A stretch of DNA of 32,000 bases from an archaeon GW2011_AR10 (lineage in GTDB: Archaea > Iainarchaeota > Iainarchaeia > Iainarchaeales > GW2011-AR10): NCBI GenBank assembly GCA_000830275.1, contig CP010424.1, positions 510,001-542,000 on the forward strand. The letters are read 5' to 3'. Positions 215-22,358 of this stretch are shown in pieces (within the stretch, counting starts at the first letter, position 1; every line of letters begins with the position of its first letter). The translations under genes were made by a program, and so were the position numbers. The notes below the pieces were generated by a model. The model had not been told where the DNA came from. It ran no database searches and worked only from the letters and a program-made list of their open reading frames with translations.

Positions 215-2311
215 TCATTCAGGTTCAATTAAAACTTCTGTCAGTTCATTTTTTAATTTAAGGGCAATTCCGGGCCACAAAAACTCTTTCTTAAGCCTCT
301 CTTTTCCTCTTGCAACCAAAGATGCAGCAAGCTTCTGGTCATTTTTTATTGCAGTTAATTTCCTCGCAAGATCACTTGGTTTTCCTTCCTTGAAAACCAA
401 GCCAGCATCGCCGATTATTTCAGGAATCGCACCGCTACTTGAGCCAATTACCGGCACTTCAACAGCCATTCCCCCGAGAAGGATTCTGCCGAATTGTTCC
501 TTCCAAACACTGGTTGACTCTGAGGGCAGAACAACAACATCCATGCAGTTCAGGTATTTGGACACTTCCTCCAGAGAAGCATTGGTTACAACAATTCTGT
601 CACGAATTTTTTTCTTTTCAGCGTAATCCAAGAAATCTTTTTCGAATGGTCCTTTTCCAACAACCAAAATGTTGAACTCAAAATCAAGTGTTGATGCAGC
701 ATCAACCAAGGTGAGCAGGCCTTTTTCCTTTGTGAGCCTTCCGCCGAAACCGATTGTGAAATGCCTTAAACCCAAAGATTTTTTGAAATCTGGGCTGCGC
801 TTTTTCGAGTAAAGGCTGTTGTCAATGCCAAGGTAAAGCAAAGAGGCTTTTTTTATGAACCCTTTTTTTCTCAGGATTTTTTCGCACTCCGTATTGAGAA
901 TGAACGCAGAGCTAGCGCGAGAAAACACAAGCCTTTCAATCAGCCTGAAAATGAGCCACCTGCGCTTTTCAACCAAGTTTTCGTTAGTGTGAAAAACAAG
1001 CTTTGCACCAGAAAGCAATGAAACGACAAACGCCTGCAGCGCAACCATGCTTCCCGGCTCCTCTTGCAGGAAAATAATATCAGGCTTTGAATGCGTGATA
1101 TTTAGTAAAAAAGGCTTCGAGTAAAAGTGCAGGTGCATGTGGTTGGTGAAAACAGTGTTTCCCAAAACCATTTTTGCTTCGTTTCTTTCCCTCAAGTTGA
1201 TTTCCTCTGTTTTTTCTGCTGAAGCAGTGTGCCAACGCGTTGGCACAATAACCGAAACATCCCAATCAGGGAATTTGGCAAGTTCAATGAACAGTATTCT
1301 GTTCAAGGGGTCATAGGCTGAATGACTAATGCATAAAACCCTTTTTTTTCTGGAGCCTATTTCAATAATTTTGCGGTCACGGTTTTTTGCCGCAAGAGTT
1401 GAAGGCAGGAAAACAAGGTTCCATAAAAGCGCCTTCAGCACGATTGGAACATTCAGCAGAACATTGTCAGAGTAACGGAGCCTGTCAAAGTAGTTAAGGC
1501 TCCTGTCCACCTTTTTGAAAGGGTTAAGGGCATTGTTGATAACGCTAAGGGCAAGCCTTGCCGTGCGAATCACGCCAAAGTTTTTTATCGAGCAGCGAAT
1601 ATTGTTTCTTATTTGCAGGTAAGATGCCTTTCTCTTCCACGCCTTGTTCTCTGTAATTCCTGAACCCTGGTGGAAGTTTGAAATGTTTGTCTGCACGAGT
1701 TTGAAGCCAGCACGCCTTGCACGAGTTTCAAAATCTAATTCCTCATCGTAGAGAAAGTAAACAGGGTCAAAGAGGCCGGCTTTTTCAAAAACTTCCCTTT
1801 TAACGAAAAGGCCGCTGCCTGAAAGGATGCCTTCTTCCAGCACATTAAAGCGAAGAGGCCTGTTCTGCCTCAAAACTTTTTTGAACTGTTCAATGCTGCC
1901 CTTCACTATTGCTCCATGCGGATTAAAATCTTTGTCTGCAAGAGGATTAAGGTCACAGCCCACCAAGCCGATTTTGTCATCCCCGGCAAAAACCCGCAGA
2001 GCTTTTTCAATCCACTGCTTTTCCACCATGCTGTCATTGTTCAAAAGCGCAATGAAATCAGCCCCCTGGAGAAGGGCTCTTTTTATTCCGACGTTTACCC
2101 CGCCGCTAAAGCCCAGGTTTTCATTGTTCTCAATGACCTCAACCTGCCTGAATTTTTTTGCAAACTCTAAGCTGTTATCAGTGCTGCCATTGTCAACCAG
2201 CAGAACCCTGAAATTTTCGTAAGTGCCCTCAAGCACGTTGGGAATACAGTACTTCAAGTGCTTCAAGCCGTTGAAGTTCAGCACAATAACATACACCAGT
2301 GAGCTGCCCAT
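215..2311 (-). CDS. Fused two-domain glycosyltransferase: N-terminal GT2 (GT-A fold), C-terminal GT4/GT1-type (GT-B fold)
   Basis: The N-terminal part has VYVIVLNFNG...VLLVDNGSTDNS and a DxD-like region typical of GT2. The C-terminal part has GGRLTKEKG...EQFGRILLGGMAVEVPVIGSSSGAIPEII, typical of the GT4 E-x7-E region. The track ORF starts at TTG 2326. I prefer the ATG at 2311 (MGSSLVYV). Confidence 0.75.
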   Translation of the reverse strand: MGSSLVYVIVLNFNGLKHLKYCIPNVLEGTYENFRVLLVDNGSTDNSLEFAKKFRQVEVIENNENLGFSGGVNVGIKRALLQGADFIALLNNDSMVEKQWIEKALRVFAGDDKIGLVGCDLNPLADKDFNPHGAIVKGSIEQFKKVLRQNRPLRFNVLEEGILSGSGLFVKREVFEKAGLFDPVYFLYDEELDFETRARRAGFKLVQTNISNFHQGSGITENKAWKRKASYLQIRNNIRCSIKNFGVIRTARLALSVINNALNPFKKVDRSLNYFDRLRYSDNVLLNVPIVLKALLWNLVFLPSTLAAKNRDRKIIEIGSRKKRVLCISHSAYDPLNRILFIELAKFPDWDVSVIVPTRWHTASAEKTEEINLRERNEAKMVLGNTVFTNHMHLHFYSKPFLLNITHSKPDIIFLQEEPGSMVALQAFVVSLLSGAKLVFHTNENLVEKRRWLIFRLIERLVFSRASSAFILNTECEKILRKKGFIKKASLLYLGIDNSLYSKKRSPDFKKSLGLRHFTIGFGGRLTKEKGLLTLVDAASTLDFEFNILVVGKGPFEKDFLDYAEKKKIRDRIVVTNASLEEVSKYLNCMDVVVLPSESTSVWKEQFGRILLGGMAVEVPVIGSSSGAIPEIIGDAGLVFKEGKPSDLARKLTAIKNDQKLAASLVARGKERLKKEFLWPGIALKLKNELTEVLIEPE

Positions 2312-2428: not shown

Positions 2429-3682
2429 ATGCATACAAGAAGCGACTGCAGGATATGCCATAGTACAAACATCGAAAAATACCTTGATTTTGGGGAAATG
2501 CCTTTGGCAGGCGGGTTTTTAACGAAAGAACAATTAAAAGAAGAACAGCTTTTCCCGCTGAACGTTTACTACTGCAAAAACTGCACTGCTTCAGAAGTAT
2601 TGGACATTGTTCCAAGGGAAATTCTGTTCAAGCAATACTTTTACATGTCCTCGGCAACAAAAACTCTTTCAGAGCATTTTGAAAGGTTTGCCAAAGAAAT
2701 CAAGGAAAAATACCTTAAAAACAAAAAAGGGCTTGTGCTTGAAATCGGCTCAAATGATGGAATACTTTTGAAGCCGCTGATGGATTTGGGAGTGAACGCT
2801 CTTGGCGTTGACCCTGCGTTAAATGTTGTAAGGATAGCGGAAGAAAAAGGCTGCAGGGTAGTGAAGGAATTCTTTACCCCGGAGGTTGCAGAGAAAATCT
2901 CCAAAAAGGAGGGACAAGCAGAAATAATAACTGCAAGCAATGTTTTCGCGCACGTTGATGACATGGACGAATTAATGAAGGCAATTAAAATAATGCTAGC
3001 AGAGGAAGGCACATTCGTAATTGAAGTGCACTACGTTCTTGACTTGGTTAAGAAAATGCAGTATGACACGATTTACCACGAGCACTTCAGCTATTACACA
3101 GTGAAATCCCTTCAAAGGCTGTTTGAAAGATACGGAATGGAAATTTTCAAGGTTGAACGGATTCCAATCCACGCTGGCTCCATCAGGGTTTTCTCAAGGA
3201 ACAAAAGGAAAGGAAACAAAGCTATTGAAAGGCAAGTTAAAGCGTTGCTGGAGGAAGAGAAAAAAGCAGGGTTGCATTCATTCAATGCATATGTTGAGTT
3301 TGCAGAAAAAGTGAAGAAGCAGAAAAACCAGCTGAACTCAATTCTTTCAAAGCTGAAAAAGGAAGGCAAAAAAATAGTTGGTTATGGTGCAGCAGGCAGG
3401 GGCAACACTCTGCTGAATTACTGCAAAATAGGCAGGGAAACTCTTGATTATGTGGTTGATGCATCTCCATTGAGGCAGAACAAGTTCATTCCAGGCATGC
3501 ATATTCCGATTGTTGCGCCGGAAAAAATGAGGGAAAGCCCGCCAGATTACGCGCTGCTGCTTGCTTGGAGCTACTTCAATGAGGTAATGAAAAAAGAGCA
3601 GGAATTCCTGAAAAAAGGCGGCAAGTTTGTAATTCCTTTGCCTAGGCCCCGCATCATTGGCGTGAAGGACTTGCAAGCTTGA
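2429..3682 (+). CDS. SAM-dependent NDP-hexose C-methyltransferase (TylC3/EvaC-like: Zn-ribbon, class I MT and C-terminal C-methyltransferase domains)
   Basis: Four-Cys Zn ribbon CRICHS...CKNC, SAM motif I VLEIGSNDG, and C-terminal GYGAAGRGNTLLNYC. The track ORF begins at GTG 2396. The ATG at 2429 with an upstream GGGAG is more likely. Confidence 0.75.
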   Translation: MHTRSDCRICHSTNIEKYLDFGEMPLAGGFLTKEQLKEEQLFPLNVYYCKNCTASEVLDIVPREILFKQYFYMSSATKTLSEHFERFAKEIKEKYLKNKKGLVLEIGSNDGILLKPLMDLGVNALGVDPALNVVRIAEEKGCRVVKEFFTPEVAEKISKKEGQAEIITASNVFAHVDDMDELMKAIKIMLAEEGTFVIEVHYVLDLVKKMQYDTIYHEHFSYYTVKSLQRLFERYGMEIFKVERIPIHAGSIRVFSRNKRKGNKAIERQVKALLEEEKKAGLHSFNAYVEFAEKVKKQKNQLNSILSKLKKEGKKIVGYGAAGRGNTLLNYCKIGRETLDYVVDASPLRQNKFIPGMHIPIVAPEKMRESPPDYALLLAWSYFNEVMKKEQEFLKKGGKFVIPLPRPRIIGVKDLQA

Positions 3683-4595
3683 AATTAGACAAGTAGTTCT
3701 GCTCTCCCAGCTTCCTGAATTTTGCCAGGTCTTCATCCATTGAAGGGAGCTTTACTTTGAACTCTTTTTCAAATTTTTGAATTGTTAAGCTGCCGTCTCT
3801 TGGCCTCTTTGCCTTGAAAATGCCCTTGTCATAGAATTCCTTCAAAGTGCTTTTTCCAATAAGGCTTTTGTCAAAGCCGTAAAGTTCTGCAACCCTTGAA
3901 GCAAGCTCAAACTTGCTTAATGAACCGTGAGCGGAAATGTTGTAAATTCCCTGCTTTGGGGAATTAACCAGCAGCTCCAAGTTTTCTGCCAAGGAATTTG
4001 CAAGAATTATGTTCATGTACTGGTCAGTGAGAGCGGAAATTTTTTGCCCCCTAGAAAGAGCATCGTAAATCCATGAAACCGAGTTTTTGCGTTCAGGCAC
4101 AATGTTCCAGCCGAAAATGCAGGTTCTCACGATATTGTATTCCGGCTTCACTGCAAGAACTGCTTCATCCCCCTCAATTTTTGTGCAAGAGTAGACGCCT
4201 GCGGCTTTTGGAGTGTCTTCCTCAGAGTAATTGCCGCGCTCACCGTCAAAAACATAGTTGGTTGAAATGTGAATGAGTTTTGAGCCGTTGTCTTTCGCTG
4301 CAATTGCAGTGTTCCTCGCAGTTTCAACGTTGACCTTTTCTGCAAGCAAAGGCTTTTCCTCGCACAGCTCGAGGTTTGTCAATGCAACAGTATTTATGAT
4401 TGCATCCGGGTTTACCTTCTGAACAAATTTCTGTGCCTGCCTTTCATTGCTTAAGTCAACCTTCCAGCCATTGCACCCCTTTATCTTAACGCCGTGGTCG
4501 TGGAAGGAAAAAAAAGTTTCAAAGTTTTCTGAAAAATGAACGCAGCAAGCGCCTCCAAGCAAACCAGAACCGCCTGCAACAAGAATGCGCTTCAC
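3654..4595 (-). CDS. RmlD-like NAD(P)H-dependent NDP-4-keto-6-deoxyhexose reductase (SDR, substrate-binding-domain type)
   Basis: KRILVAGGSGLLGG Rossmann motif, YSCTKIEGD (YxxxK), and an RmlD-like length. The GTG start at 4595 lies 4 nt after the stop of the upstream gene and is preceded by GGAAGTGA. The track start at 4652 would overlap the upstream gene by 53 nt. Confidence 0.65.
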   Translation of the reverse strand: MKRILVAGGSGLLGGACCVHFSENFETFFSFHDHGVKIKGCNGWKVDLSNERQAQKFVQKVNPDAIINTVALTNLELCEEKPLLAEKVNVETARNTAIAAKDNGSKLIHISTNYVFDGERGNYSEEDTPKAAGVYSCTKIEGDEAVLAVKPEYNIVRTCIFGWNIVPERKNSVSWIYDALSRGQKISALTDQYMNIILANSLAENLELLVNSPKQGIYNISAHGSLSKFELASRVAELYGFDKSLIGKSTLKEFYDKGIFKAKRPRDGSLTIQKFEKEFKVKLPSMDEDLAKFRKLGEQNYLSNFKLASPSRQ

Positions 4596-4599
4596 TGAA

Positions 4600-5850
4600 T
4601 CACTTCCCGTGCCCTGACATGAAACCCTCAAATTTTTCCACAACGTAATCAATCATTTCATCGGTCATGCCTGGATGGCATCCAACGTAAAATGACTGCG
4701 AGTGAAAAAAATCCGTAACAGGAAGCGAAGATGACCTAATCTTAAACCCAGCGTAAGCAGGCTGCTTGAGCACGTTGCCGCCAAGCAGAAGCCTTGTTTC
4801 AATTCTTGCATTCCTCAAAAAGTCAATCAGTTCTGTCCTGCTGAAGGGCGCATTCTCCTTAATTGTTATTGGCACCGAAAACCAAGCTGCTTTAGCACCC
4901 TTTTCCTCTGTTGGAAACTCAAGAAAATCAGAGAATTTTTTCAATCCTTTGACAATCTTTGAAAAGTTTTGCCTGCGCTTTTCAACAAAGCCTGGGAGCT
5001 TTTTCAGCTGCTGCAAACCCATTGCTGCCTGCAATTCAATAATTCTCATTTTGTATCCAATGCTGGTGTACAGCGTTCTTTTGGATGGGTCCTTGAACGC
5101 GTTCTCGTCAAGCCCGCAGGTTTTAAGAGAATAAATCAGGGGATATAGTTTTTCATTGTTTAATGTAATGCTGCCGCCCTCTCCCATCGTGAAAGCGTGC
5201 GCTGCGTAAAATGAAAAGCACCCCGCGTCGCCGAAACTTCCAACCCTTTTACCGTTAAAGCTTGCTCCGTGAGCGTCACAGCAGTCCTCCACAAGAAAAA
5301 GGTTGTGTTCTTTTGCAATTCTGGTTAACTCATCCATCCTGCAAGGGTTTCCGAGGTGATGCAGCACAAGCAGCGCCCTTGTTTTCCTAGTAATCATTTC
5401 TTCAACAGTTTTTGGGTTCATGTTATAGGAGTGCCTTTCAACATCAACAAGCACCGGGTTAAGGCTGTTTAAGATGACGGAATTAAGCGATGTGGGAAAA
5501 GTAAGGGCAGAGGTAATGACTTCATCTCCTTCCTTTAAGTTGTTTTCAATGCGCGGGCTTTTTAGCGCTGCAAAAGCAAGGAGGAGTGCGCTTGAACCGG
5601 AATTGGTTACAATTGAATCCCTGCAGCCAACGTATTTCGCGAATTCCTGCTCGAATTTTCTAGTAAGCTTGCCTTCTGCAAGCCAGCCTGTGAAAAGGCT
5701 GTCAACGACTGCGTTTATTTCTTCAGCGCCAAACAAGGGGGCTGCATAATTAACCGTGGTTTTTCCGGGAACAAACTTTTCTGCTGGCAACTTTTTTTTG
5801 GCAATCCGTTCAATCAAAGAGTGAAGCTCACCAATTTCTGGTTCAGTCAT
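4600..5850 (-). CDS. PMP-dependent NDP-4-keto-6-deoxyhexose 3-dehydratase (E1/RfbH/DdhC or ColD type) of the DegT/DnrJ/EryC1 fold
   Basis: DegT-family motifs NSGSSALLL, EDCCDAHG and FSFYAAHAFTMGEGG. The position of the Schiff-base Lys is His (codon 5199..5197). ATG 5850 overlaps the upstream stop (ATGA) and follows GAAGGTGA. Confidence 0.7.
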   Translation of the reverse strand: MTEPEIGELHSLIERIAKKKLPAEKFVPGKTTVNYAAPLFGAEEINAVVDSLFTGWLAEGKLTRKFEQEFAKYVGCRDSIVTNSGSSALLLAFAALKSPRIENNLKEGDEVITSALTFPTSLNSVILNSLNPVLVDVERHSYNMNPKTVEEMITRKTRALLVLHHLGNPCRMDELTRIAKEHNLFLVEDCCDAHGASFNGKRVGSFGDAGCFSFYAAHAFTMGEGGSITLNNEKLYPLIYSLKTCGLDENAFKDPSKRTLYTSIGYKMRIIELQAAMGLQQLKKLPGFVEKRRQNFSKIVKGLKKFSDFLEFPTEEKGAKAAWFSVPITIKENAPFSRTELIDFLRNARIETRLLLGGNVLKQPAYAGFKIRSSSLPVTDFFHSQSFYVGCHPGMTDEMIDYVVEKFEGFMSGHGK

Positions 5851-6794
5851 TTTTTCACCTTCTGCTGTTTCAGCCACTGCTCTGTTTTGGCTAGGCCTTC
5901 CTCCAGCTTGGTTTTAGGCTTCCAGCCTAGAACCTTTTTTGCCTTGCTGTAATCGCAGACAAGCTTGTTTATTTCTGCCTGAGGGTGATGGTGCTTTACG
6001 TGCCTAACCCTGCTTTTGTCCTTGACAATCAGGAAAGCCAAATCATTGATGGAAATGTCTTTGCCTGTTCCTGCATTGAGTACTTGGCCAACAGCTTTTT
6101 CACTGAAAGCGGCCTCAACAATGAATTCAGCGCAGTCCTCGACAAAAAGCAAATCCCTTGTCTGGTTTCCTGAGCCAAAAATTTCAATGGTTTCGCCGTT
6201 CAGCTTTCTTTGCACAAAAATGCTTACAACCCCGCCCTCCATGTTGCTTTTCTGGAAAGGCCCAAAAGTATTAAATGGCCGCAAAATCACAACAGGCAAG
6301 CCAAATGAATGGAAGTATGCTTCAGCCATTGCTTCAGCTGCAATCTTGGAAGCAGCGTAAGGGGAAAGGGCCTTGAACTCATGCTTTTCACTAATTGGAG
6401 TGCCGCTTGAGAGATCGTAAACCATGCACGTGCCGATAACAACAACTTTGCAGTTGGTTTTGCGAGCTGCCTCAAGGACATTGAAAGTTCCAAGAATGTT
6501 TGAGTCAAAAGATTTTTGCGGAAAATCAATGCTTTCCTGGACATTAATTTGCGCAGCAGCGTGAATGCATACATCAAATTTGTTTTTGTAAAACAATTCG
6601 TTTACTGCTTTGCTGTCCTCAACTCCTGCAACAACCAAACCCCTGAAATCATCATTTTGCAAAAATTCCGCAATGTTTTCCTCTGAACCGTTTGAGAAGT
6701 CATCAATAACCCACACCCTGTGTTTTCCATCCAAAAGCTTTTTCACAACCCACCGGCCTATGAATCCTGCGCCGCCTGTAACAAGCACATTCAT
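5847..6794 (-). CDS. Extended-SDR NAD-dependent nucleotide-sugar epimerase/reductase
   Basis: NVLVTGGAGFIGRW, YAASKIAAE, ILRPFNTFGP. The ATG at 6794 lies 5 nt after the upstream stop and is preceded by GGAAGTGATT. There is no clear D-E dehydratase dyad (GTCMVYD). Confidence 0.7.
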   Translation of the reverse strand: MNVLVTGGAGFIGRWVVKKLLDGKHRVWVIDDFSNGSEENIAEFLQNDDFRGLVVAGVEDSKAVNELFYKNKFDVCIHAAAQINVQESIDFPQKSFDSNILGTFNVLEAARKTNCKVVVIGTCMVYDLSSGTPISEKHEFKALSPYAASKIAAEAMAEAYFHSFGLPVVILRPFNTFGPFQKSNMEGGVVSIFVQRKLNGETIEIFGSGNQTRDLLFVEDCAEFIVEAAFSEKAVGQVLNAGTGKDISINDLAFLIVKDKSRVRHVKHHHPQAEINKLVCDYSKAKKVLGWKPKTKLEEGLAKTEQWLKQQKVKK

Positions 6795-6799
6795 ATTAA

Positions 6800-7759
6800 T
6801 CACTTCCTGAAAGTTTTGTACCACTCAATTGTTTTCTTAAGGCCTTCCTCGAGGCTGAATTTTGGCTGCCAGCCCAGCTTATCCTTAATTTTGGAGTAAT
6901 CAGCCTGCAATGCAGCCAAGTCCCCTTTCCTTCCCTCAGCAAACTCAACCCTTGAACTGCTGCCAGTAAGCCCGATTATTTTTTCTGCCAGGCCCTTTAT
7001 TTTGATTTGTTTGCCTGAACCAATGTTGAAAGTTTCCCCTTTGAGTTTTCCGCGCGTTAAAACAAGGCTCTCATAGGCTCTTACCGCGTCCTTAACATAC
7101 TGGAAATCCCTTGTCTGCTCTCCACTGCCAGTTATCCTTAATGGTTCGTTGCTTAAGGCCCTTTCAATGAATGCAGGAATTACGGCTGAATAAGCTGAAA
7201 CGTTCTGGTTTGGGCCAAACGTGTTGAAGTTCCTTATCACGTTAACAGGATAAGAGTACCACTCGAACAGGCTCATGCAGTGCTTTTCCGCGGCAAGCTT
7301 GGTTACAGCGTAAATGCTCCTCGGCCTCATTGGGTGCAGTTCATCCATCGGCGTTCTAACAGGGTTACCGTAAACCTCAGGAGAAGAAGCATAAATCAAA
7401 AAAGGCTGGGAGGAAGAGGAAAAAAGGTTATGAACAAACTCAAAGGTTTTCCTTTCATTGTTTTCAAAGTACTTTTCCGGCTTCACCATTGACTCGTCAA
7501 TTGAAACAAAGGCAGCGAAGTGGATTACTGCATCAACATTTAATTCATCAATTGCCTTTGCGTTGAGTTCCGCGAAATCCTTCTTAAGCAGCGAAAACTT
7601 TTTTTCAGGGTCACTAAGCATTCCCATTGGCTTTGCTGACTTGAATTTCCTGGAAAAATCGTCAACTCCAACAATGCCCTCAATTTTTTTGTTATCTACA
7701 AGCTGCTGGCAGGCATGGATGCCGTAAAGGCCTGCTGCACCAGTAACAAGAACCCTAAT
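6800..7759 (-). CDS. Extended-SDR nucleotide-sugar epimerase/dehydratase whose Rossmann motif lies upstream of the first ATG (probable ATT start)
   Basis: The track ORF (6800..7627) starts at MGMLSD and lacks GxxGxxG. The same frame stays open 44 more codons upstream (IRVLVTGAAGLYGIHACQQLVDNKKIEGIVGVDDFSRKFKSAKP) to an in-frame TGA at 7762..7760. GAGGTG lies 6 nt upstream of ATT 7759..7757. The downstream part has SSPEVYG, YAVTKLAAE and NFNTFGP. Confidence 0.6.
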   Translation of the reverse strand: MRVLVTGAAGLYGIHACQQLVDNKKIEGIVGVDDFSRKFKSAKPMGMLSDPEKKFSLLKKDFAELNAKAIDELNVDAVIHFAAFVSIDESMVKPEKYFENNERKTFEFVHNLFSSSSQPFLIYASSPEVYGNPVRTPMDELHPMRPRSIYAVTKLAAEKHCMSLFEWYSYPVNVIRNFNTFGPNQNVSAYSAVIPAFIERALSNEPLRITGSGEQTRDFQYVKDAVRAYESLVLTRGKLKGETFNIGSGKQIKIKGLAEKIIGLTGSSSRVEFAEGRKGDLAALQADYSKIKDKLGWQPKFSLEEGLKKTIEWYKTFRK

Positions 7760-7817
7760 TCAAACCACCTCTAAAAGAAAACCAGAAACAATACTGATTT
7801 CTTAAAAGGAAAAGCAT

Positions 7818-8750
7818 TTAAAGCTCCTCCCTTGAAAACATGAACCCAATCAAAGCAGTAAGGTAGGTGAGCAGAAGCGCATTTACGATTGAGAACGCAA
7901 CAACTACGGATGCAGAAACGCTGAACAGCGCAAACAACGAAATCAGTGCAGCCTCGTTTGTCCCCAAACCGTTAATGGTTATTGGAATCAATGAAATCAC
8001 TGAAGCAATAGCCACAAACCCAATCACATGAAGCGGCGGAACATTAATCGAGAAAGCCAGCGCAATCACGTAGGACTGCAGGAACACAAGAAGCCATGAA
8101 ACAACTGAAAGAAACCAAGCCTGCAGCAGAACAGGCTTTGATGGAAGGGAATCATAAAATTTGTTGAAAAAATCCCTGCTTTGCTCCTTTAGTTTTTCAG
8201 GCACCAGAACATAGAAGACGTGCCTCAAAACAGTTCTTGCCCTGTGCTTTTCCAGCATGAACCAAAAAGCAGAAAGCAAAAAAACAAAAATTAAGAATAT
8301 TGAATAGTATAAATCCACGAAATATTCCAACAAGAGAACAGAACCCATGAAAGCGAATGTAAGAACCGAAAACAAGTCAAGTATTCTGTCGAGAAGCACG
8401 GAGCTGGTGCAGAATGCAAGTGGTTTTCCTGTTTTTTTCTGCAGCAAACTGATGCGGTAAAAGCTGCCGAGCTTTCCAGGAGTTATTGCTCCGTAAAAGA
8501 GGCCTACAAAGTACGCTTTCAGCAGGAACACAAAACTGGTTTTCTGTTTCTGGTTGTCAAGGATTAATTTCCACTTGACAGTCTGCACTATTGCGATGAA
8601 CGGAATGAAGGCAAGGGAAAACAAAAGCATTAGTGCATTTGCCTGCAGCGCTGCTGAAACAATGCTGTCAAGGCCAACGCTTAACAGAATGAATGCAAAA
8701 ATGAACAATCCAATGAAAGGGGCAACTGATTTAAGGCTTAAGCGGCTCAT
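7818..8750 (-). CDS. Polytopic membrane protein, UPF0104 / LPG-synthase-TM (flippase-like) family
   Basis: About 8 hydrophobic segments. VKWKLIL...GAITPGKLGSFYRISLL...LLDRILDLFSV matches the RW...PGrlGE...eR..D pattern of UPF0104. The ATG at 8750 lies 1 nt after the upstream TAA. The track start at 8828 is inside the upstream gene. Confidence 0.55.
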   Translation of the reverse strand: MSRLSLKSVAPFIGLFIFAFILLSVGLDSIVSAALQANALMLLFSLAFIPFIAIVQTVKWKLILDNQKQKTSFVFLLKAYFVGLFYGAITPGKLGSFYRISLLQKKTGKPLAFCTSSVLLDRILDLFSVLTFAFMGSVLLLEYFVDLYYSIFLIFVFLLSAFWFMLEKHRARTVLRHVFYVLVPEKLKEQSRDFFNKFYDSLPSKPVLLQAWFLSVVSWLLVFLQSYVIALAFSINVPPLHVIGFVAIASVISLIPITINGLGTNEAALISLFALFSVSASVVVAFSIVNALLLTYLTALIGFMFSREEL

Positions 8751-8751
8751 T

Positions 8752-10017
8752 TTATCTTCCAATTCCCTTAAAGCGGATTCCTGCTGCAGAAATTGCATCC
8801 TTATCAAGGGCATTCCTCGCGTCAACAACGGCTTTTACATTGTTTTTTTTCAGGAATTCTGCTGAAATGGTTTTTACAAAAAGATTGTGGGCAGTCAAAA
8901 GCACCACGCAGTCAGCTTCCTTCACTGCTTCTTCCAGTGATGAGCAGTTGCTTTTGCTTTTCACGAAAGGGTCAAAGGTTTTCACAACAGCCCTTTTTTC
9001 CTTGAGCAGTTCAACAACCTTTAAGGCCGGGCTCTCGCGAGTGTCATCTACATCTGCTTTGTAGGCAATGCCCAAGCAAGCAATTTTTTTTCCTTCAAGG
9101 TTTCCTGTTAAAAATTCAGCAAGCCCAACCACAAAAGCAGGCATTGAGTCATTGATTTTTCTCGCCAGAGGCAGGAACTCGTGCTGGAACCCCTTGGACT
9201 TTGCCCTTTCAATCAGATAGTATGGGTCAATGGCTATGCAGTGGCCTCCTACGCCTGGGCCAGGCCAAAATGGCATGAAGCCAAACGGTTTTGTTGAAGC
9301 GCCCCTGATGACGTCCGCAACATCAATCCCCATTTTGTCAAACGATTTCGCTAATTCGTTCACAAAAGCAATGTTAACATCCCTGAAACTGTTTTCTGTT
9401 AACTTGACAGCTTCAGCTTCCTTGACGGAATTCATTTCAAAGACTTCTGCTTTAAGGACATTGCCATAAAAATTTTTTGCTTTCTTTGTTCCTTCCTTGC
9501 TCATTCCTCCAAGCACTCTTGGAATGTTCTCAATGCCCCACTTTCTGCTGCCTGGATCTATTCTTTCAGGGCAGTGAACCAAGAAAAAATCTTTTTCCGG
9601 CTTAAGCCCGGATTCTTGCAGAATTGGAAGAACTACTTCTTCTGTTGTGCCAGGAAAAATTGTTGATTCAACAATTATTAACTGCCCTTTCTTCAGGTTT
9701 CTTGCAATGCTGCTGCACGCAGACTTTAACGCGTAAAGGTCAGGATGGTGCTTTTCATCAACAGGGGTTGGCACGCACACAACAATAACACTAGCCTTGC
9801 TGATAACTTTCTCGTCAGTTGTCGCGGAAATCTTTCCCTTAAGTTTCCTAACCTGCCTTTCAAGTTCCGCATCAGCAATGTGGGAAATGCCAGCATTTAT
9901 TTTTTCCACTGTTTTCTTGTTCACGTCAAAGCCGAAAGTGGTTAACCCTTTTCTCGCGCAAAGGCACGCAAGCGGCAAGCCAACATAGCCCAAGCCAATG
10001 ATTGCCACTGAATCCAT
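8752..10017 (-). CDS. Nucleotide-sugar 6-dehydrogenase (UDP-N-acetylhexosamine dehydrogenase type, WecC/WbpA/TviB-like)
   Basis: N-terminal IIGLGYVGLPLA, catalytic GGHCIAIDPYYL, and C-terminal GIAYKADVDDTRESPA. There is no intein at the catalytic Cys. Confidence 0.8.
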   Translation of the reverse strand: MDSVAIIGLGYVGLPLACLCARKGLTTFGFDVNKKTVEKINAGISHIADAELERQVRKLKGKISATTDEKVISKASVIVVCVPTPVDEKHHPDLYALKSACSSIARNLKKGQLIIVESTIFPGTTEEVVLPILQESGLKPEKDFFLVHCPERIDPGSRKWGIENIPRVLGGMSKEGTKKAKNFYGNVLKAEVFEMNSVKEAEAVKLTENSFRDVNIAFVNELAKSFDKMGIDVADVIRGASTKPFGFMPFWPGPGVGGHCIAIDPYYLIERAKSKGFQHEFLPLARKINDSMPAFVVGLAEFLTGNLEGKKIACLGIAYKADVDDTRESPALKVVELLKEKRAVVKTFDPFVKSKSNCSSLEEAVKEADCVVLLTAHNLFVKTISAEFLKKNNVKAVVDARNALDKDAISAAGIRFKGIGR

Positions 10018-17083: not shown

Positions 17084-17740
17084 CAGCTCTGTGAGAATCA
17101 CTTTCGGCATCCTAGAAACAGGGAAAACCTCGCTTGGAGCAGGAAAATGCTGCACTGGAACCTCTTTAACCTTAAACCCTTTCCTGAATGCCCTTATTGC
17201 AAGCTCTGCATTGCTTGCATAGGTAAGGGTCCCAACATCCTGAGAAACCTGTTGCACGAGCTTTTTCCGCATTACCCTGAAACCGCAGTTTGAATCCTTA
17301 AGCCATAACCCAAACATTGCCCCAATCAAAAAGTTGTTGAACCTCGAAATAAAGAAACGGTAGAATGGCTTTCTGTTCTCCTTGAAGCCAATAACAATGT
17401 CAGCATTTTCAAGTTCAATGTAGAGTTTCCAGAAGTCTTTTGGGGAGTGCTCTCCATCAGAATCAGAGAAGAAAATTACGTCGTTTTTTGGGAGTTTTAA
17501 CGCGTCCTTTACTGCTTTCGTGTAGCCTTTCCTTTTTTTTCCTGACACAAGCCTTATTGGATACTTTTTTGAGAGTTCAGCAAGCGCTTCTTTGGTGCCA
17601 TCAGTGCTGCCATCCTCCGCTACAATGAACTCAGAGCCAGGAAGCTTTTCAATTACCTCCTTGCAATAAGAATCAATTATTTTAGGGATTACTTTTGCCT
17701 GGTTGTAGACGGGCATTACTATTGAAATTTTTTCCTTCAA
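17051..17740 (-). CDS. GT2 polyprenyl-phosphate sugar synthase-like glycosyltransferase
   Basis: ISIVMPVYNQ, VAEDGSTDGT, FSDSDGEH, NCGFRVM. TTG 17740 overlaps the upstream TGA (TTGA) and follows GGAGAGGA. The track start is TTG 17779. Confidence 0.7.
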   Translation of the reverse strand: MKEKISIVMPVYNQAKVIPKIIDSYCKEVIEKLPGSEFIVAEDGSTDGTKEALAELSKKYPIRLVSGKKRKGYTKAVKDALKLPKNDVIFFSDSDGEHSPKDFWKLYIELENADIVIGFKENRKPFYRFFISRFNNFLIGAMFGLWLKDSNCGFRVMRKKLVQQVSQDVGTLTYASNAELAIRAFRKGFKVKEVPVQHFPAPSEVFPVSRMPKVILTELLDLVKLRLQV

Positions 17741-19038
17741 GCAATCCTCTCCGACAAATCCTTTGCGTGCCTGATGCAAGCATCACTGTTAATGTACTGG
17801 AATTCGGCGAACCTGCCGCACAACGGAATTCCAAGTTCTTTTTCAAAGTAACCCCTTATTGCCGCAATGTTTTTCTCGTAATCCAAATCATATACAACGT
17901 AAGCGAACTTGGTTCTGAAAGCCTTAGAGTATATGACATCGCTTTTGTCGATTAGCTGCTGTTTGTCTAGGTATTCCACTACATGCTCAACTAGTTTCTT
18001 GTCCGGTGCCTTGGATACTTCGTCTCCTTCATTGAATGTTATTTCAGCTCCAACAGAAAACAGCCCTTCAGGAGCAGTCATTGGGGAATAGTTTTTTGGG
18101 AAAATAACCCTGTGCCCTTTAAAGGCTGAATCAGGAATGTAAAGCCAGTGCTTGTCTGTTACTTTCCCTTTTTTCATGCCAATGAAAATTGTTACAAGGG
18201 AATTGTACTTTAAAGCAGAAATTGCTTTTGAGATTTTTTCAGGAATTTCTGGAATGGCTTTCTGTAAACCATAAATCGGGAGAGTTGAAACAATTTTGTC
18301 GAACTCTTTTTCCTGCACTCCGTTTGAAACAACCCATTTTCCTTTCCTTTTTTCAACTGATTTAACCTCAAAGTTTTTTGTAACTTTTCCCCTGATTTTT
18401 TCTTCAAGCGCATCAGTTATTGCTTGAAAGCCGCCATTGCGGGGGTAATAGAAGAAAAGCTGGTGCGTATAGCCCTCTGTTTCAATTCCGAGAGAAGCCT
18501 TTATGATGTCTTCTGCAGGAGGCTTTGGAATTCTTGGGTAAACCCAGAAGGTTGCCATCTTTGATGGAGGAAAATTCCAGATTTTTTTGTTGTATGGAAG
18601 CAAGTATTTCTCGGTTATGCCCTTGCCGAACGTTAAATACATCCATTCCTCAAAATTTTTTGGCTCCCTTTTCTCCGCTGAAAACGTTTTGACGAATTCA
18701 TTAAGGCATTCAAAGTTGTCCTCTAAAGGCAAATCGCTTAAGCCGTTCTCAAACGGATACTTTACAAACCTGCCCTTGAACAGCACTTTCGCGTTGCGCT
18801 TGTTCTTAACCTTGTTTTCTCCAAGCAGATCCAGCACGAAATCAAGTATTTCCTTGTCCTTTGAAAAAATTATGTGCGGGCCGTGAGTGTCAAAAGTGAA
18901 TCCCTGCTCTGAAAAAGAACGGCAGAGGCCGCCTGCAACGCTGTCTTTTTCAAGAACCTCAAAACCAATTCCTTTTTTCTGCAGGAAGTAGCCAAGAGCC
19001 AGACCGGTTACGCCTCCTCCAAGAATCCCGATTTTCAA
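17737..19038 (-). CDS. FAD-dependent oxidoreductase, UDP-galactopyranose mutase / amine-oxidase-like
   Basis: N-terminal dinucleotide fold MKIGILGGGVTGLALGYFL..EVLEKDSVAGGLCRS, then YYPRNGGFQAITDAL and C-terminal GRFAEFQYINSDACIRHA, similar to the Glf GR..Y.nMD motif. Confidence 0.5.
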   Translation of the reverse strand: MKIGILGGGVTGLALGYFLQKKGIGFEVLEKDSVAGGLCRSFSEQGFTFDTHGPHIIFSKDKEILDFVLDLLGENKVKNKRNAKVLFKGRFVKYPFENGLSDLPLEDNFECLNEFVKTFSAEKREPKNFEEWMYLTFGKGITEKYLLPYNKKIWNFPPSKMATFWVYPRIPKPPAEDIIKASLGIETEGYTHQLFFYYPRNGGFQAITDALEEKIRGKVTKNFEVKSVEKRKGKWVVSNGVQEKEFDKIVSTLPIYGLQKAIPEIPEKISKAISALKYNSLVTIFIGMKKGKVTDKHWLYIPDSAFKGHRVIFPKNYSPMTAPEGLFSVGAEITFNEGDEVSKAPDKKLVEHVVEYLDKQQLIDKSDVIYSKAFRTKFAYVVYDLDYEKNIAAIRGYFEKELGIPLCGRFAEFQYINSDACIRHAKDLSERIA

Positions 19039-19047: not shown

Positions 19048-19653
19048 CTAAGGGAAAAATTTGTTTTTTTTGCCAAGCGAAAGCATTACAAGCGAGCAGA
19101 GCAAGTGCTCTAACAGCAAATGAATTGACTCAACTTTTGCGTAGTTGCCTGAGTTAACCAGCACAAAACTGTCAGCAAGCTTTAATGCTTTCCCGCCATT
19201 AAAGCCGAGTAGCGCGGCAACCCTGCATTTCTTTTTTTTCGCAACCTCAAGCGCCCTCAAAATGTTCGGAGAGTTGCCTGAACCGCTAATGGCAATTACA
19301 AGGTCCTCTTCCTGCGCTAAACCCATTAACTGCTGCGAGAACACATGCTCAAAACCAAGGTCATTGGCCAATGCAGCCATTAAAGGAATGTTGTCGTTCA
19401 GGCACACAACCCTAAAGCGCTTTTCTGCATCACTGCTGAGGTCAACAACAGTGTTTTTGGAGAGGTCAGCTGCAAAATGCGAGGCAGTTGAAGCGCTGCC
19501 GCCGTTGCCGAAAACAAAAACAGTTCCATGTTTCCTGAAAACTGAAACAATTTCTTCTGCCACTTTCAAAATTTGCCGGCTGTCAAGGCCCTCAATTAAC
19601 AGCCCGGTTTCATTCAAGTACTGCTTAATGAATTCATTGTTTTCTTTCGTCAA
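19048..19653 (-). CDS. gmhA: D-sedoheptulose-7-phosphate isomerase (SIS domain)
   Basis: VFVFGNGGSASTASHFAADL and ISGSGNSPNIL are characteristic GmhA motifs. 201 aa. Confidence 0.8.
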   Translation of the reverse strand: MTKENNEFIKQYLNETGLLIEGLDSRQILKVAEEIVSVFRKHGTVFVFGNGGSASTASHFAADLSKNTVVDLSSDAEKRFRVVCLNDNIPLMAALANDLGFEHVFSQQLMGLAQEEDLVIAISGSGNSPNILRALEVAKKKKCRVAALLGFNGGKALKLADSFVLVNSGNYAKVESIHLLLEHLLCSLVMLSLGKKNKFFP

Positions 19654-20620
19654 GAATTATCCTGCTCCCTTCGCTTTCAAACCCAAACTTGAGTTCCTTA
19701 AGATTTAATGTGCCCCTCACTTTTTCTTGGTTTTCTTTTGGTACGAACAGCAGCAGGAAGCCGCCGCCGCCGGCTCCAAGAATTTTTCCGCCTGAAGCCC
19801 CGGCATTCAAGGCAGTTCCATAAAACTTTTCAATTCCTTCATTTGAAATTCCGCTTGCAAGGGTTTTTTTAAGTTTCCAATTCTCATGCAATAGCTCCCC
19901 GACTTTTTCAACAGAATTTTTTTGAAGTGAATTCCGCATTTCAACTGCCAATGCTTTCATCCTTGAAAGTGCTTCAAACTTTTCCCTGCTTAACTCAACG
20001 TTTTTCTTCTGCTCTGAAAGAATTTCGCTTGCTTTCCTTGTCTGGCCAGTGAAAAAAAGCAAAAGGTTTTCCTGAAGCTTTCGCTGCGTGGAACCGCTTA
20101 ATTTAATCGGAGTCACCTTAACGCTTTCATCCGAATTGAATTCAATGAAGCGCAAACCGCCGAAAGCGGCAATGAACTGGTCCTGCTTTCCGATTGGTTC
20201 CCTAACAACACCGATTTCGATTTTGCAGGCATCCTCTGCTAGCTCTTTGGCTGTTTTTCTATTTCCGCGAAAAAAATGCAGCGCGTTCAGCAGCCCAACA
20301 GTAAGCGAGGAGCTTGAGCCAAGGCCAGTGCCCCTGCTTGGAACATCCGCAATTGTTGTTATTTCGACGCCGTTTTTTACACCGCACAAGCGCATTGACT
20401 CCCTTACAAGTTCATGCTTTAATTCGTCAAGCGAGTCCACTATTTCTGTCCTAGAATAAGCAACCCTTATCTTGTCCTCAAAGCTTTTGTTGAGCGTTAC
20501 ATACATGAACTTGTCAATTGCAGCGCTTACAACTGCGCCGGACTCGCGCTTATAGAAAACATCAATGTCGGTTCCTCCGCCTACAAAACTTATCCTGAAA
20601 GGGGTCTTCGAAATAATCAT
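19634..20620 (-). CDS. hddA: GHMP kinase, D-glycero-alpha-D-manno-heptose-7-phosphate kinase-like
   Basis: MIISKTPFRISFVGGGTDIDVFY, the GHMP motif SRGTGLGSSSSLTVGLLNAL, and C-terminal GGKILGAGGGGFLL. Confidence 0.7.
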   Translation of the reverse strand: MIISKTPFRISFVGGGTDIDVFYKRESGAVVSAAIDKFMYVTLNKSFEDKIRVAYSRTEIVDSLDELKHELVRESMRLCGVKNGVEITTIADVPSRGTGLGSSSSLTVGLLNALHFFRGNRKTAKELAEDACKIEIGVVREPIGKQDQFIAAFGGLRFIEFNSDESVKVTPIKLSGSTQRKLQENLLLFFTGQTRKASEILSEQKKNVELSREKFEALSRMKALAVEMRNSLQKNSVEKVGELLHENWKLKKTLASGISNEGIEKFYGTALNAGASGGKILGAGGGGFLLLFVPKENQEKVRGTLNLKELKFGFESEGSRIILDERKQ

Positions 20621-20758
20621 TTTATCGCCTCAAATTAACAAATCTTGCCAAAAAAACATTATTAAAGTACTGCTTCCCAACTATTGGCTGCTGGTTCAGC
20701 TCCCGACTTTTTTTCTGAATGATAACTTTATAATTGACTTTGGGCTATTATTTAATGT

Positions 20759-20974
20759 ATGCGCAGAAAAGCCTATGATTTTGTTGTTTTGATTGAGCAG
20801 GCGTCTGATGGCATGTTTATTGCGAAAGTCCCAGATATTCAGGGCTGTTATACTCAAGGAAAGACAATTTCTCAGGTGTTGGATAGAATTAAAGAGGCTA
20901 TTCAGATTTGTTTGGAAGCTGAAGAATTTGAGTCTCCAAAGACAACGTTTGTTGCTCCTGTTAGGATAAAATGA
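20759..20974 (+). CDS. hicB: HicB-family (UPF0150) antitoxin-like protein with no adjacent HicA
   Basis: YDFVVLIEQASDGMFIAKVPDIQGCYTQGKTISQVLDRIKEAIQICLE matches the HicB N-terminal fold signature. 71 aa. Confidence 0.65.
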   Translation: MRRKAYDFVVLIEQASDGMFIAKVPDIQGCYTQGKTISQVLDRIKEAIQICLEAEEFESPKTTFVAPVRIK

Positions 20975-21048
20975 ATATTTTGGTTTTTTGAAGATTTATT
21001 TTTGCCCATATTCATTTCACCGTTGTAGTGTTAAAAACTCTTTTACTG

Positions 21049-21312
21049 TTAAAAGAATTTTTTGTACCATTTTTCGTATTCTTTGTGGTCTCCGATAAAA
21101 TAAAATTTGACTATTTTTTCATTTTCAAAAATCCTGTAAATTATTCGATTCTGCCCTACTTCACCAACAAAGAAACTCGCTCCTTTTTGCAAGTGCCTTT
21201 TCTGCGGATATTCCAATATTTTTTTTATTTTCTTTGTTGTCCTTTCTTTCATTTCGTTTGATAACCTGTCAAAATAATCTGGCCAATCTTCATCATATAT
21301 TTCAGAGTACAT
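21049..21312 (-). CDS. relE: RelE/ParE-superfamily toxin (archaeal RelE-like)
   Basis: 87 aa. VGEVGQNRIIYRIFENEKIVKFYFIGDHKEYEKW resembles the RelE core (vGdyRiiY...gdHkeY). It starts 6 nt after the stop of the upstream small gene. Confidence 0.65.
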   Translation of the reverse strand: MYSEIYDEDWPDYFDRLSNEMKERTTKKIKKILEYPQKRHLQKGASFFVGEVGQNRIIYRIFENEKIVKFYFIGDHKEYEKWYKKFF

Positions 21313-21318
21313 GAAATA

Positions 21319-21567
21319 TTACTTCAGGTATTTGGCATATTTGCCGAGAGCTTGTTCAGAATTAAGGGTTTTTCTTTTTCCAAGTCTTGCCTGCCTGTCT
21401 AAAAAGTCAAGTTTTCTATTTACAAGCTCAATTTCATTGGTTTCTGCTTGTTCTAAAAACTTGTCTGCTATTTGGGCTTTCTTTTTCAGAAAACTATACT
21501 CTTCTTTTGAAATAATAACTGTGTCTTGTTTTTGCACTTTTTTCACCAAATTAATATAGCCCTTCAA
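21319..21567 (-). CDS. Putative cognate antitoxin of the RelE-like toxin (Phd/YefM-like N-terminus)
   Basis: 82 aa, located immediately upstream of the toxin. DTVIISKEEYSFLKKK resembles the YefM vlmS.eeYesL segment. A/T-rich promoter-like sequence lies directly upstream. Confidence 0.5.
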   Translation of the reverse strand: MKGYINLVKKVQKQDTVIISKEEYSFLKKKAQIADKFLEQAETNEIELVNRKLDFLDRQARLGKRKTLNSEQALGKYAKYLK

Positions 21568-21668
21568 TTATTAAATACTTTTTGTTATACAGTAATCCCG
21601 CCTCCTGGCACTGTTCCACGAGTGCAAATCCTGCTGATTTTATAGAGTATTTATCGGTTTTGCCTGCC

Positions 21669-22358
21669 TTACTTTATAACCTTGGCCAAAGCCTTGAGTT
21701 TTTCTTTCGAGCCCATGTCATAAAATCTCTGTTCGGTGGGAAACGCGAACAAGGCATGGTTCCTTGCAAGCACAGGGAAAACCTCTTCCTCTAAAGAAAA
21801 CTCTTTTTTTTTCGGAAAATAACTAAAGGAATCCTTTTGCAGCACTTGAATGCCTGCATCAACTGCATTCATCGAAGAGCTTCCGGCCTTGTTGTAAGCC
21901 AAAACCTTGTTGCCTTCAACCTGAAGGTTGCTTGCAGCAATTTCCTCAAAACCAATGTAAGCAACAATAACATTTGATTCAATTGAGCGGTAAAATTGAA
22001 TTAGTTCGCGGAAATTTATTGGAAGGAACGTGTCACCGTTAACCAGCAGAAACTCTTCACCAAGTTTTTGCTCTGCATTAAGCAGTGCGCCACCTGTTCC
22101 CAACAATTTTTCCTCAACAGAGTAAGCAATATTAACGCCGAATTTTTTTCCATTCCCAAAATGCGACTCAATTTTTTCGTGGAGGTATGAGCTAAGAAAA
22201 AGAAACTCTGAGAAACCCTGCTTTTTCAGGAACAAAACAAGGTGCTCTAGGAAAGGTTTGCCATTAAGCTCCACCATTGGCTTCGGCACTTTCTCGGTTA
22301 AAGGCCTAAGCCTTGTTCCAAGGCCGCCGCACAAAACCACTGCCTGCATTGCACTCAT
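21669..22358 (-). CDS. hddC: Sugar-1-phosphate nucleotidyltransferase, D-glycero-alpha-D-manno-heptose-1-phosphate guanylyltransferase-like
   Basis: VVLCGGLGTRLRPLTEKVPKPMVELNGKPFLEHL, LGTGGAL, VNGDTF. About 229 aa, as for HddC. The ATG overlaps the upstream stop (ATGA). Confidence 0.6.
   Translation of the reverse strand: MSAMQAVVLCGGLGTRLRPLTEKVPKPMVELNGKPFLEHLVLFLKKQGFSEFLFLSSYLHEKIESHFGNGKKFGVNIAYSVEEKLLGTGGALLNAEQKLGEEFLLVNGDTFLPINFRELIQFYRSIESNVIVAYIGFEEIAASNLQVEGNKVLAYNKAGSSSMNAVDAGIQVLQKDSFSYFPKKKEFSLEEEVFPVLARNHALFAFPTEQRFYDMGSKEKLKALAKVIK

Follow-up and report, generated by a model that had tools for sequence, protein, structure and literature searches.

Gene content and layout of the locus

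The 32,000-nucleotide (nt) stretch of contig CP010424.1 (positions 510,001 to 542,000) from the archaeon GW2011_AR10, referred to here as the window, carries between positions 2429 and 7759 a four-gene, coupled nucleotide-deoxysugar cassette of a groundwater DPANN archaeon and, facing it, a gene for a sugar C-methyltransferase. The cassette lies on the minus strand and is transcribed in the order SDR1, SDR2, DegT-fold enzyme, RmlD-like reductase. SDR1 (6800–7759; motif SSPEVYG...YAVTK) is an extended short-chain dehydrogenase/reductase (SDR) with an apparent ATT start and is the candidate first enzyme of the cassette. SDR2 (5847–6794; motif GTCMVYD...YAASK) is an ortholog of Pal, as recognized through PDB entry 6bwl. 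The third gene (4600–5850) encodes a 416-aa DegT-fold homolog of the E1/RfbH-lineage 3-dehydratases, identified through Pfam, NCBIfam, PDB and AlphaFold comparisons, and the fourth (3654–4595, with a GTG start at 4595) an RmlD-like nucleoside diphosphate (NDP)-4-ketohexose reductase. The C-methyltransferase gene (2429–3682, plus strand) belongs to the TylC3/TcaB9/MtmC family by its Pfam and PDB matches.

An initial annotation of this DNA had proposed that the DegT gene is translationally coupled to two upstream SDR genes and a downstream RmlD-like gene, and that this operon faces the methyltransferase gene. Both features are borne out by the gene boundaries: the SDR2 stop and the DegT-fold start overlap as ATGA, gaps of 4 nt and 5 nt separate the DegT-fold gene from the RmlD-like gene and SDR1 from SDR2, respectively, and the methyltransferase and RmlD-like genes are convergent, their 3' ends sharing 29 bp (3654–3682). 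This overlap makes the insertion junction very tight and leaves no space for terminators between the two genes. No E3 (AscD/DdhD)-type protein, as defined by Fer2, FAD_binding_6 or NAD_binding_1 domains, was found in any sizeable open reading frame (ORF) of the window, to which the search was confined, in agreement with the annotation. Twenty-two contigs, most of them from Rifle-type aquifer samples (groundwater metagenomes), encode the DegT-fold protein in identical form.

The DegT-fold enzyme and its cluster-binding loop

The DegT-fold protein scores 333.9 bits against the Pfam DegT_DnrJ_EryC1 model (PF01041) and contains the motif FSFYAAHAFTMGEGG, in which there is no Lys. Its catalytic His, encoded by the minus-strand codon at 5197–5199, is residue 218 counted from the ATG at 5850 or 227 from an upstream GTG at 5877, so that the number His227 used in the annotation is valid for the latter start. 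In HMMER alignments this residue falls opposite His220 of E1 from Yersinia (PDB 3bcx) and, in the H220K variant of E1 (3bb8), opposite the Lys introduced there. Because His occupies the same column in all 120 of the closest database homologs, it reflects neither chance nor a sequencing error. The proposed replacement of the Schiff-base Lys by His therefore stands, and no conserved catalytic Lys, of the kind a normal aminotransferase would have, was found elsewhere in the active-site loop.

Sequence and predicted fold place the enzyme in the E1/RfbH lineage and not in that of ColD. In searches of the PDB it matched E1 (3bcx) with E=4.6e-95 and 39% identity, and ColD (2gms) with E=3.6e-50 and ~30% identity. 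The NCBIfam RfbH model (NF011936) matched in two stretches, split at the loop discussed below, with a score of 412.5 bits against an equivalog cut-off of 423. The AlphaFold model (pLDDT 87.9) superimposes in Foldseek on E1 with a TM score of 0.91 and on ColD with 0.81. The EDCCDA and SGSSA motifs of E1 are retained, and the protein is intact, being 60% identical to homolog P0002 and keeping every family-invariant residue. These results uphold its assignment to the group of pyridoxamine 5'-phosphate (PMP)-dependent 3-dehydratases, and C3 deoxygenation of an NDP-4-keto-6-deoxy sugar is a plausible predicted activity.

The Cys-rich [2Fe-2S] loop of E1, whose cysteines the initial annotation had suggested looking for, is deleted in the window enzyme. 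The interval between the GEGG and GY(K/N) motifs comprises 38 residues with one Cys, while in 109 of the 120 close homologs it measures 57–61 residues and holds 3–6 Cys (all loop-Cys counts are based on hmmalign alignments). The nearest relatives carry a 61-residue loop of the pattern KTCGRACxCxxC...C, ~23 residues more than the window enzyme, and the canonical E1-type loop has 57 residues and the sequence DCWCxPGxDNTC. Correspondingly, the HMMER match to E1 is broken in two, and E1 residues 251–279, a Cys-rich segment of ~30 residues, have no counterpart. What is left of the cluster-binding loop, as delimited by loop lengths and Cys counts across homologs, is the remnant G246–K257 (GLDENAFKDPSK; 5080–5115, minus strand). 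The cluster ligands of E1 are said to have been identified by Agnihotri et al. in 2004 as C193, C251, C253 and C261. Three of the four lie in the deleted loop, and the window enzyme is left with the EDCC cysteines and a single loop Cys.

The 38-residue form was found, besides the window enzyme, only in homologs P0001 (98% identity) and P0002 (60%). A neighbor-joining tree built without the loop columns, which is rough and carries no support values, nests the window clade among archaeal sequences with 61-residue loops holding 4–5 Cys, while ColD is distant and groups with ~47-residue 'RAHGW'-type loops. From this nesting we judge that a deletion within a lineage of Fe-S-type enzymes removed the cluster-binding loop. 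Cys-less His-type DegT proteins are common as a class: at most one loop Cys is present in 11 of the 120 closest homologs and in 61 of 135 His-type representatives of clusters formed at 50% identity. These counts suggest that the Fe-S loop was lost repeatedly; in the E1 lineage, the losses in P0016/24/26/28, P0078 and P0106 look independent.

The deletion also affects naming, as it brings the score under the RfbH cut-off and automatic annotation thereby loses the dehydratase call. A 98%-identical protein at NCBI, from Candidatus Diapherotrites (DPANN), is named 'DegT/DnrJ/EryC1/StrS family aminotransferase', whereas relatives with the Cys loop are called RfbH.

Two modes of 3-deoxygenation are established for His-type enzymes. 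E1 and SpnQ require a four-Cys [2Fe-2S] motif together with an external reductase, while ColD has neither; there the enamine is hydrolyzed and pyridoxal 5'-phosphate (PLP) is re-aminated by glutamate (PMC8987622). Since the [2Fe-2S] loop is deleted, an E3-type electron route to the window enzyme appears implausible, and ColD-like chemistry in an E1 scaffold is our best guess. From the missing E3 the annotation had argued either for such self-sufficiency or for a partner encoded elsewhere. The first option is strengthened by the loop deletion, but the missing E3 is uninformative by itself: the related enzyme at the archaeal locus L008 retains its Cys loop, yet no E3 gene is nearby. In the window and at loci L007 and L024, the operon gene that comes right after that of a Cys-less His-type enzyme encodes an RmlD-like reductase, which argues for retained function and for a 4-keto product.

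The partner genes and related loci

SDR2 shares 53% identity with Pal from Bacillus thuringiensis (PDB 6bwl; E=4.3e-112), the enzyme that completes the 4,6-dehydration of UDP-GlcNAc, a two-enzyme process, in the pseudaminic acid pathway of Bacillus. Homologs of 51–55% identity to SDR2 were found on 60 plasmids. At the three SDR2-homolog loci inspected (B. thuringiensis, Priestia and the haloarchaeon Halorussus), all of them nonulosonic acid loci, the gene lies between or beside genes for a Pen/PseB-type SDR and a Lys-type DegT aminotransferase, directly upstream of the latter. SDR2 lacks the [ST]DK motif, and against the CDP-glucose 4,6-dehydratase model TIGR02622 (cut-off 278 bits) it scores 99 bits and SDR1 52 bits. 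Because SDR2 is a Pal ortholog in the position Pal takes before a DegT gene, the cassette substrate may by analogy be a 4-keto-6-deoxy sugar derived from a UDP-N-acetylhexosamine (UDP-HexNAc) rather than from a CDP- or GDP-hexose. If so, the analogy points to a 2-acetamido-2,3,6-trideoxyhexose as the cassette product. The CDP- or GDP-hexose substrate assumed in the initial annotation thus becomes questionable, as Pal belongs to UDP-GlcNAc-based pathways. The RmlD-like reductase matches Pfam RmlD_sub_bind (PF04321) with 162.8 bits, TIGR01214 with 163.5 bits (cut-off 224) and PDB 2ggs with E=1e-31, and the position of its gene is conserved at loci L007, L008, L011 and L024.

SDR1 is less readily classified. 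Its Pfam, NCBIfam and PDB matches are ambiguous, the best being to Pal, GalE, UXS and RmlB types; its top PDB matches include no Pen chain. The Rossmann motif VTGAAGLYG is intact, and no ATG, GTG or TTG precedes it. Instead, an in-frame TGA is directly followed by ATT at 7759, which lies 5 nt past a Shine-Dalgarno-like GAGGTGG (context to 7775) and aligns with the ATG of the SDR1 orthologs (319 aa) in L007 and L008; gene callers all shorten the protein to 275 aa. Either the ATT initiates translation or the gene is truncated or crippled. A sequencing error was considered and rejected, as the ATT is present in six independent assemblies. A decarboxylase role of the ArnA/UXS type for SDR1, exercised together with the NDP-sugar dehydrogenase encoded in synteny, was considered and set aside, as SDR1 scores only 51 bits against the corresponding model; the UXS-like SDR of the window is the one encoded at 23350–24321.

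Two further Iainarchaeia loci, L007 and L008, show the gene order of the window: NDP-sugar dehydrogenase, flippase-like protein, SDR1, SDR2, E1-like enzyme and RmlD-like reductase. The E1-like enzyme is Cys-less in L007 and has a 5-Cys loop in L008. In the window, the NDP-sugar dehydrogenase (8752–10017, minus strand) and the flippase-like LPG_synthase_TM protein (7818–8813, minus strand) are, as in both sister loci, syntenic with the cassette; their role in the pathway is putative. The C-methyltransferase gene is absent from the L007 and L008 cassettes. Compared with L008, the window lineage, which is covered by a longer stretch in L001, has gained three genes: those for the methyltransferase, for a glycosyltransferase (GT) that is a GT2+GT1 fusion (215–2311, minus strand; Pfam Glycos_transf_2 and Glycos_transf_1), and for a second RmlD-like reductase just past the left end of the window (L001 17606–18508; RmlD_sub_bind 190.9 bits). 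The gene-context sample is small, a strict-pattern scan of genome contigs having given seven loci, besides which individual contigs were inspected.

Two more features were noted in L008, at 2616–4001 and 6546–7904. A second E1-like paralog with four loop Cys and 44% identity to the window protein is encoded upstream of SDR1, and a gene for a B12-binding radical S-adenosylmethionine (SAM) protein nearby offers an alternative possible route to C-methylation.

The C-methyltransferase shows the three-domain architecture of its family, consisting of a Zn-binding N-terminal domain, a class I SAM domain and a C-terminal domain, with Pfam scores of 65.7 (Methyltransf_13, PF08421), 87.7 (Methyltransf_23, PF13489) and 199.9 bits (Methyltransf_14, PF08484), all above the cut-offs. 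It matches the D-mycarose 3-C-methyltransferase 4rv9 (E=1e-94) and TcaB9 (3e-84) over its full length and aligns end to end with 4rv9, 5t64 and 3ndi. Its CRIC...CKNC, VLEIGSNDG and YHEHF segments align with their counterparts in MtmC and KijD1; the last of these (Y-x-E-H) we take, from work on TcaB9, to be the catalytic Tyr/Glu/His stretch. The earlier identification of a TylC3-type sugar C-methyltransferase with a Zn ribbon is thereby substantiated, and no affinity to non-sugar methyltransferases appeared. The enzyme is predicted to methylate C3 of an NDP-4-keto sugar, and C5 methylation of the NovU type is also possible from the sequence.

The nearest homologs of the methyltransferase are ~54% identical, with DPANN archaea among the named sources, and their genes sit with genes for SDRs, an RmlC-type epimerase, glycosyltransferases and AglB; no DegT gene was found near the three closest homologs inspected. 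Because the L007 and L008 cassettes lack it, the methyltransferase is a lineage-specific later add-on that lies outside the conserved cassette. By analogy, the methyltransferase, reductase and glycosyltransferase would fit a self-contained module that taps the 4-keto intermediate of the cassette for a second sugar.

A pathway combining 3-deoxygenation with C-methylation evidently exists in bacteria, to judge from gene content. Five genes read in one direction, rfbF–rfbG–DegT–C-methyltransferase–NAD(P) reductase, form an operon on plasmids from Roseibium/Labrenzia, Leisingera and Sinorhizobium mexicanum, with copies at L019 5590–11187 (Roseibium algicola), L020 5703–11214 (Leisingera sp. S132) and L023 5782–11269 (S. 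mexicanum). Its DegT protein is His-type (SFYGSHVI), has no Cys-rich loop and is annotated merely as 'aminotransferase'. The DegT proteins are 31–32% and the methyltransferase 40% identical to the window proteins, values that mark them as analogs and not orthologs. The operon looks like a CDP-linked pathway for a deoxy, C-methyl sugar in culturable bacteria; we know of no published biochemistry for it.

Other bacterial candidates for such a combination were rejected. A Streptomyces methyltransferase match belongs to a classical 2,3-dehydratase/mycarose-type cluster. Plasmid loci of S. meliloti BL225C and S. fredii NGR234 contain a glucose-1-phosphate cytidylyltransferase homolog and a C-methyltransferase and were discarded for want of a DegT gene, no DegT-like gene being present in either locus; a ddhA–ddhB–C-methyltransferase arrangement has been annotated in S. 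meliloti (PMC4053727).

The rest of the window holds further genes of sugar metabolism. At 19048–22358 (minus strand) lie GmhA-like (SIS), HddA-like (GHMP kinase) and HddC-like (nucleotidyltransferase) genes, all scoring under their equivalog cut-offs, which hint at NDP-heptose synthesis or a pathway like it; a GmhB-type phosphatase was not seen with this set in the window. The set is interrupted by an AT-rich insert encoding a HicB-like antitoxin (20759–20974, plus strand) and a weak ParE/RelE-like toxin (21049–21312, minus strand). A flavin amine-oxidase-fold protein is encoded among glycosyltransferases at 17737–19038 (minus strand); it weakly resembles UDP-galactopyranose mutase (50 bits to TIGR00031) and may act as a mutase or oxidase on sugar nucleotides. 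Finally, a gene of the UDP-glucose/GDP-mannose dehydrogenase family (25060–27798, minus strand) is split by an intein with a LAGLIDADG homing endonuclease domain, as seen from Pfam Intein_splicing and LAGLIDADG_3 matches inside the 912-aa ORF.

Proposed pathway and alternatives

These data have led us to propose a model in which the chemical steps, the nucleotide carrier and the products are drawn from sequence and from analogy with characterized enzymes. SDR1 and the Pal-type SDR2 would convert a nucleotide sugar, most likely a UDP-HexNAc by the Pen/Pal analogy, to an NDP-4-keto-6-deoxy sugar. The His-type DegT enzyme would form a PMP ketimine at C4 and eliminate the C3 hydroxyl. Lacking its loop, it would be unable to accept electrons from an E3 or ferredoxin partner, and the reaction would most likely finish as in ColD, with hydrolysis of the enamine to a 3-deoxy-4-keto sugar and ammonia and regeneration of PMP from glutamate. 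The RmlD-like enzyme would then reduce C4 to yield a 3,6-dideoxy sugar. The C-methyltransferase most likely draws on the same 4-keto pool: methylation of the 3-hydroxy intermediate would give a separate 6-deoxy-3-C-methyl sugar, and methylation of the 3-deoxy intermediate a branched dideoxy sugar. Taken as a whole, this model of a four-gene cassette built around an Fe-S-less, ColD-like dehydratase of the E1 lineage, with the methyltransferase as a later add-on, has in our estimate a slightly better than even chance of being correct.

Several points weigh against it. The Pen/Pal analogy holds by half, as SDR1 is not of the Pen/PseB type (Polysacc_synt_2, TDK motif), and without a canonical start codon SDR1 could be non-functional. 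No nucleotidyltransferase adjoins the cassette. The RfbH score of the DegT-fold protein falls just under the cut-off (412.5 versus 423), and confidence in its AlphaFold model is low near the catalytic His (residues 216–222) and the loop remnant (255–266). Under conditions of the SpnQ type, no transaminase turnover was seen with wild-type E1 (PMC8987622), so that ColD-like turnover cannot be taken for granted in an E1 scaffold.

Whether the locus makes one sugar or two depends on how the methyltransferase is connected to the cassette. The initial annotation had concluded that a 3-dehydratase combined with a C-methyltransferase implies a branched dideoxy sugar, that is, a single linear pathway in which both enzymes act on the same molecule to give a C-methyl-branched 3,6-dideoxy sugar such as 3,6-dideoxy-3-C-methylhexose. 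That product is plausible: the methyltransferase gene has no adjoining 4,6-dehydratase or nucleotidyltransferase gene of its own and abuts the cassette through the 29-bp overlap, and the acidic C3-H that the TylC3/TcaB9 family needs is still present in a 3-deoxy-4-keto sugar. The alphaproteobacterial operon unites the two activities, evidently as one unit, although its proteins are distant analogs of those in the window. The implication drawn in the annotation weakens in that the sister loci retain the cassette without the methyltransferase and the closest methyltransferase homologs have no DegT gene nearby, while two RmlD-like reductases and an extra glycosyltransferase in this lineage fit two products. 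None of the literature titles and abstracts examined dealt with a 3,6-dideoxy-3-C-methyl sugar; where a dideoxy-3-C-methyl sugar was named, it was a 2,6-dideoxy sugar of a macrolide or an arabinitol without relation to it. On balance, the single pathway is doubtful. In the other arrangement, two branches would leave a shared 4-keto-6-deoxy intermediate: the E1-like enzyme and the first RmlD-like reductase would make an unbranched 3,6-dideoxy sugar, the methyltransferase and the second RmlD-like reductase a 6-deoxy-3-C-methyl sugar of the virenose/evalose/cereose type, and the GT2+GT1 fusion would install the latter. The insertion relative to L008 consists of exactly the methyltransferase, glycosyltransferase and RmlD-like genes; the closest methyltransferase homologs reside in like modules (SDRs with or without RmlC, no DegT), and the S. 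meliloti and S. fredii NGR234 loci pair a cytidylyltransferase homolog with a C-methyltransferase and have no DegT-like gene. Gene context alone fits a hybrid pathway equally well, and the bacterial His-type DegT operons show that the hybrid occurs, so that we grant the branched scheme a real chance that stops short of even. A single branched dideoxy sugar is thus no likelier than two separate products, and what remains of the probability goes to other arrangements.

Other alternatives concern the chemistry of the dehydratase itself. Without its cluster, the E1-like protein might not be a dehydratase, acting instead as a C4 aminotransferase, as SpnQ does without reductase when supplied with glutamate and PLP (PMC8987622), or persisting as a decaying, inactive relic. 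The NCBI name and the missing canonical start codon of the upstream SDR1 gene are compatible with this, but the next, coupled gene encodes a 4-ketoreductase that would be left substrate-less if C4 were aminated, and no N-acyltransferase is present in the cassette. Moreover, the protein is intact, with the family-invariant residues kept (60% identity to P0002), the same sequence recurs on 22 contigs, and Cys-less forms recur in conserved operons; we consider this explanation very unlikely. A further possibility is E1 chemistry of the classical type with electrons from a partner encoded elsewhere, the substrate being a CDP-hexose or a GDP-heptose made available by the GmhA/HddA/HddC-like genes at 19–22 kb. 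This would agree with the CDP-specific E1 being the best sequence and fold match and with the presence in the window of heptose-activation-like genes and two nucleotidyltransferases; sister enzymes with a Cys loop also lack a nearby E3, remote partners being normal in the clade. It is decidedly improbable, however, since the loop deletion removes three of the four cluster ligands and the upstream enzyme is a Pal ortholog and not a CDP-glucose 4,6-dehydratase (no [ST]DK motif, TIGR02622 score far under the cut-off).

The ColD-like, loop-less dehydratase remains our preferred reading. Should the enzyme be active, the E1/E3 radical electron relay would be dispensable through a simple loop deletion, and the E1 and ColD types of 3-deoxygenation would be states that can change into one another, not inventions made separately. 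It would also provide a cofactor-light, reductase-free 3-deoxygenase for chemoenzymatic deoxysugar synthesis, possibly accepting UDP-HexNAc, and a first concrete prediction of surface glycan chemistry in DPANN archaea, of which, to our knowledge, almost nothing is known; that the organism is uncultured sets a practical limit here. An extension of the model, which we regard as unlikely but worth stating, is that the reductase-independent dehydratase acts on Pal-made UDP-4-keto-6-deoxy-HexNAc and that its product is C-methylated. The cell surface would then bear a 2-acetamido-2,3,6-trideoxy-3-C-methylhexose (or a 3,6-dideoxy-3-C-methylhexose), with a parallel version in marine and rhizobial alphaproteobacteria. 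We know of no report of this class of sugars from nature.

Relation to known systems

The closest solved relative of the window enzyme is E1 (DdhC/AscC/RfbH), the CDP-6-deoxy-L-threo-D-glycero-4-hexulose 3-dehydrase of Yersinia and Salmonella, with which it shares the fold, the His, the EDCCDA and SGSSA motifs and a subsequent ketoreductase step. Unlike E1, it lacks the Cys segment (E1 251–279), has no E3 encoded in the window and is not preceded by a CDP-glucose synthase and 4,6-dehydratase. ColD (WbdK), the GDP-4-keto-6-deoxy-D-mannose 3-dehydratase, resembles the window enzyme in being His-type and in having neither an Fe-S cluster nor a reductase partner. The two belong to different clades (~30% identity), however, the window enzyme having probably become Cys-less by deletion within the E1 lineage, and its use of glutamate is a prediction. 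SpnQ, from the forosamine pathway of spinosyn, likewise belongs among the E1-lineage 3-dehydratases and has no E3 gene dedicated to it, but it retains the Fe-S motif that the window enzyme lacks and draws on general ferredoxin/flavodoxin reductases (PMC8987622).

The window methyltransferase matches TylC3, TcaB9, KijD1 and MtmC over its full length (~37–40% identity) and has the same Zn cysteines, SAM motif and YHEHF segment. The known members act on dTDP-linked antibiotic sugars, with CDP-linked relatives in Bacillus and Sinorhizobium. The order of the cassette, a first SDR followed by a Pal-type SDR and a DegT-fold enzyme, is that of Pen, Pal and Pam (PseC) in the CMP-pseudaminic acid pathway of B. 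thuringiensis; the cassette differs in that SDR1 is not of the Pen/PseB type, the DegT enzyme is His- and not Lys-type, and an RmlD-like reductase replaces PseH/G/I, no nonulosonate synthase being found in the window. The alphaproteobacterial operon, like the window, pairs a Cys-less His-type DegT protein with a TylC3-type methyltransferase and a reductase, but consists of five co-directional genes, includes its own CDP-glucose genes and encodes proteins of 31–40% identity. Each part of the archaeal locus is of a familiar type, the dehydratase of E1/ColD type, the methyltransferase of TylC3 type, the SDR of Pal type and the reductase of RmlD type. The novelty lies in an E1-lineage enzyme without the Fe-S loop, paired with a Pal-type SDR and situated beside a C-methyltransferase in an archaeon.

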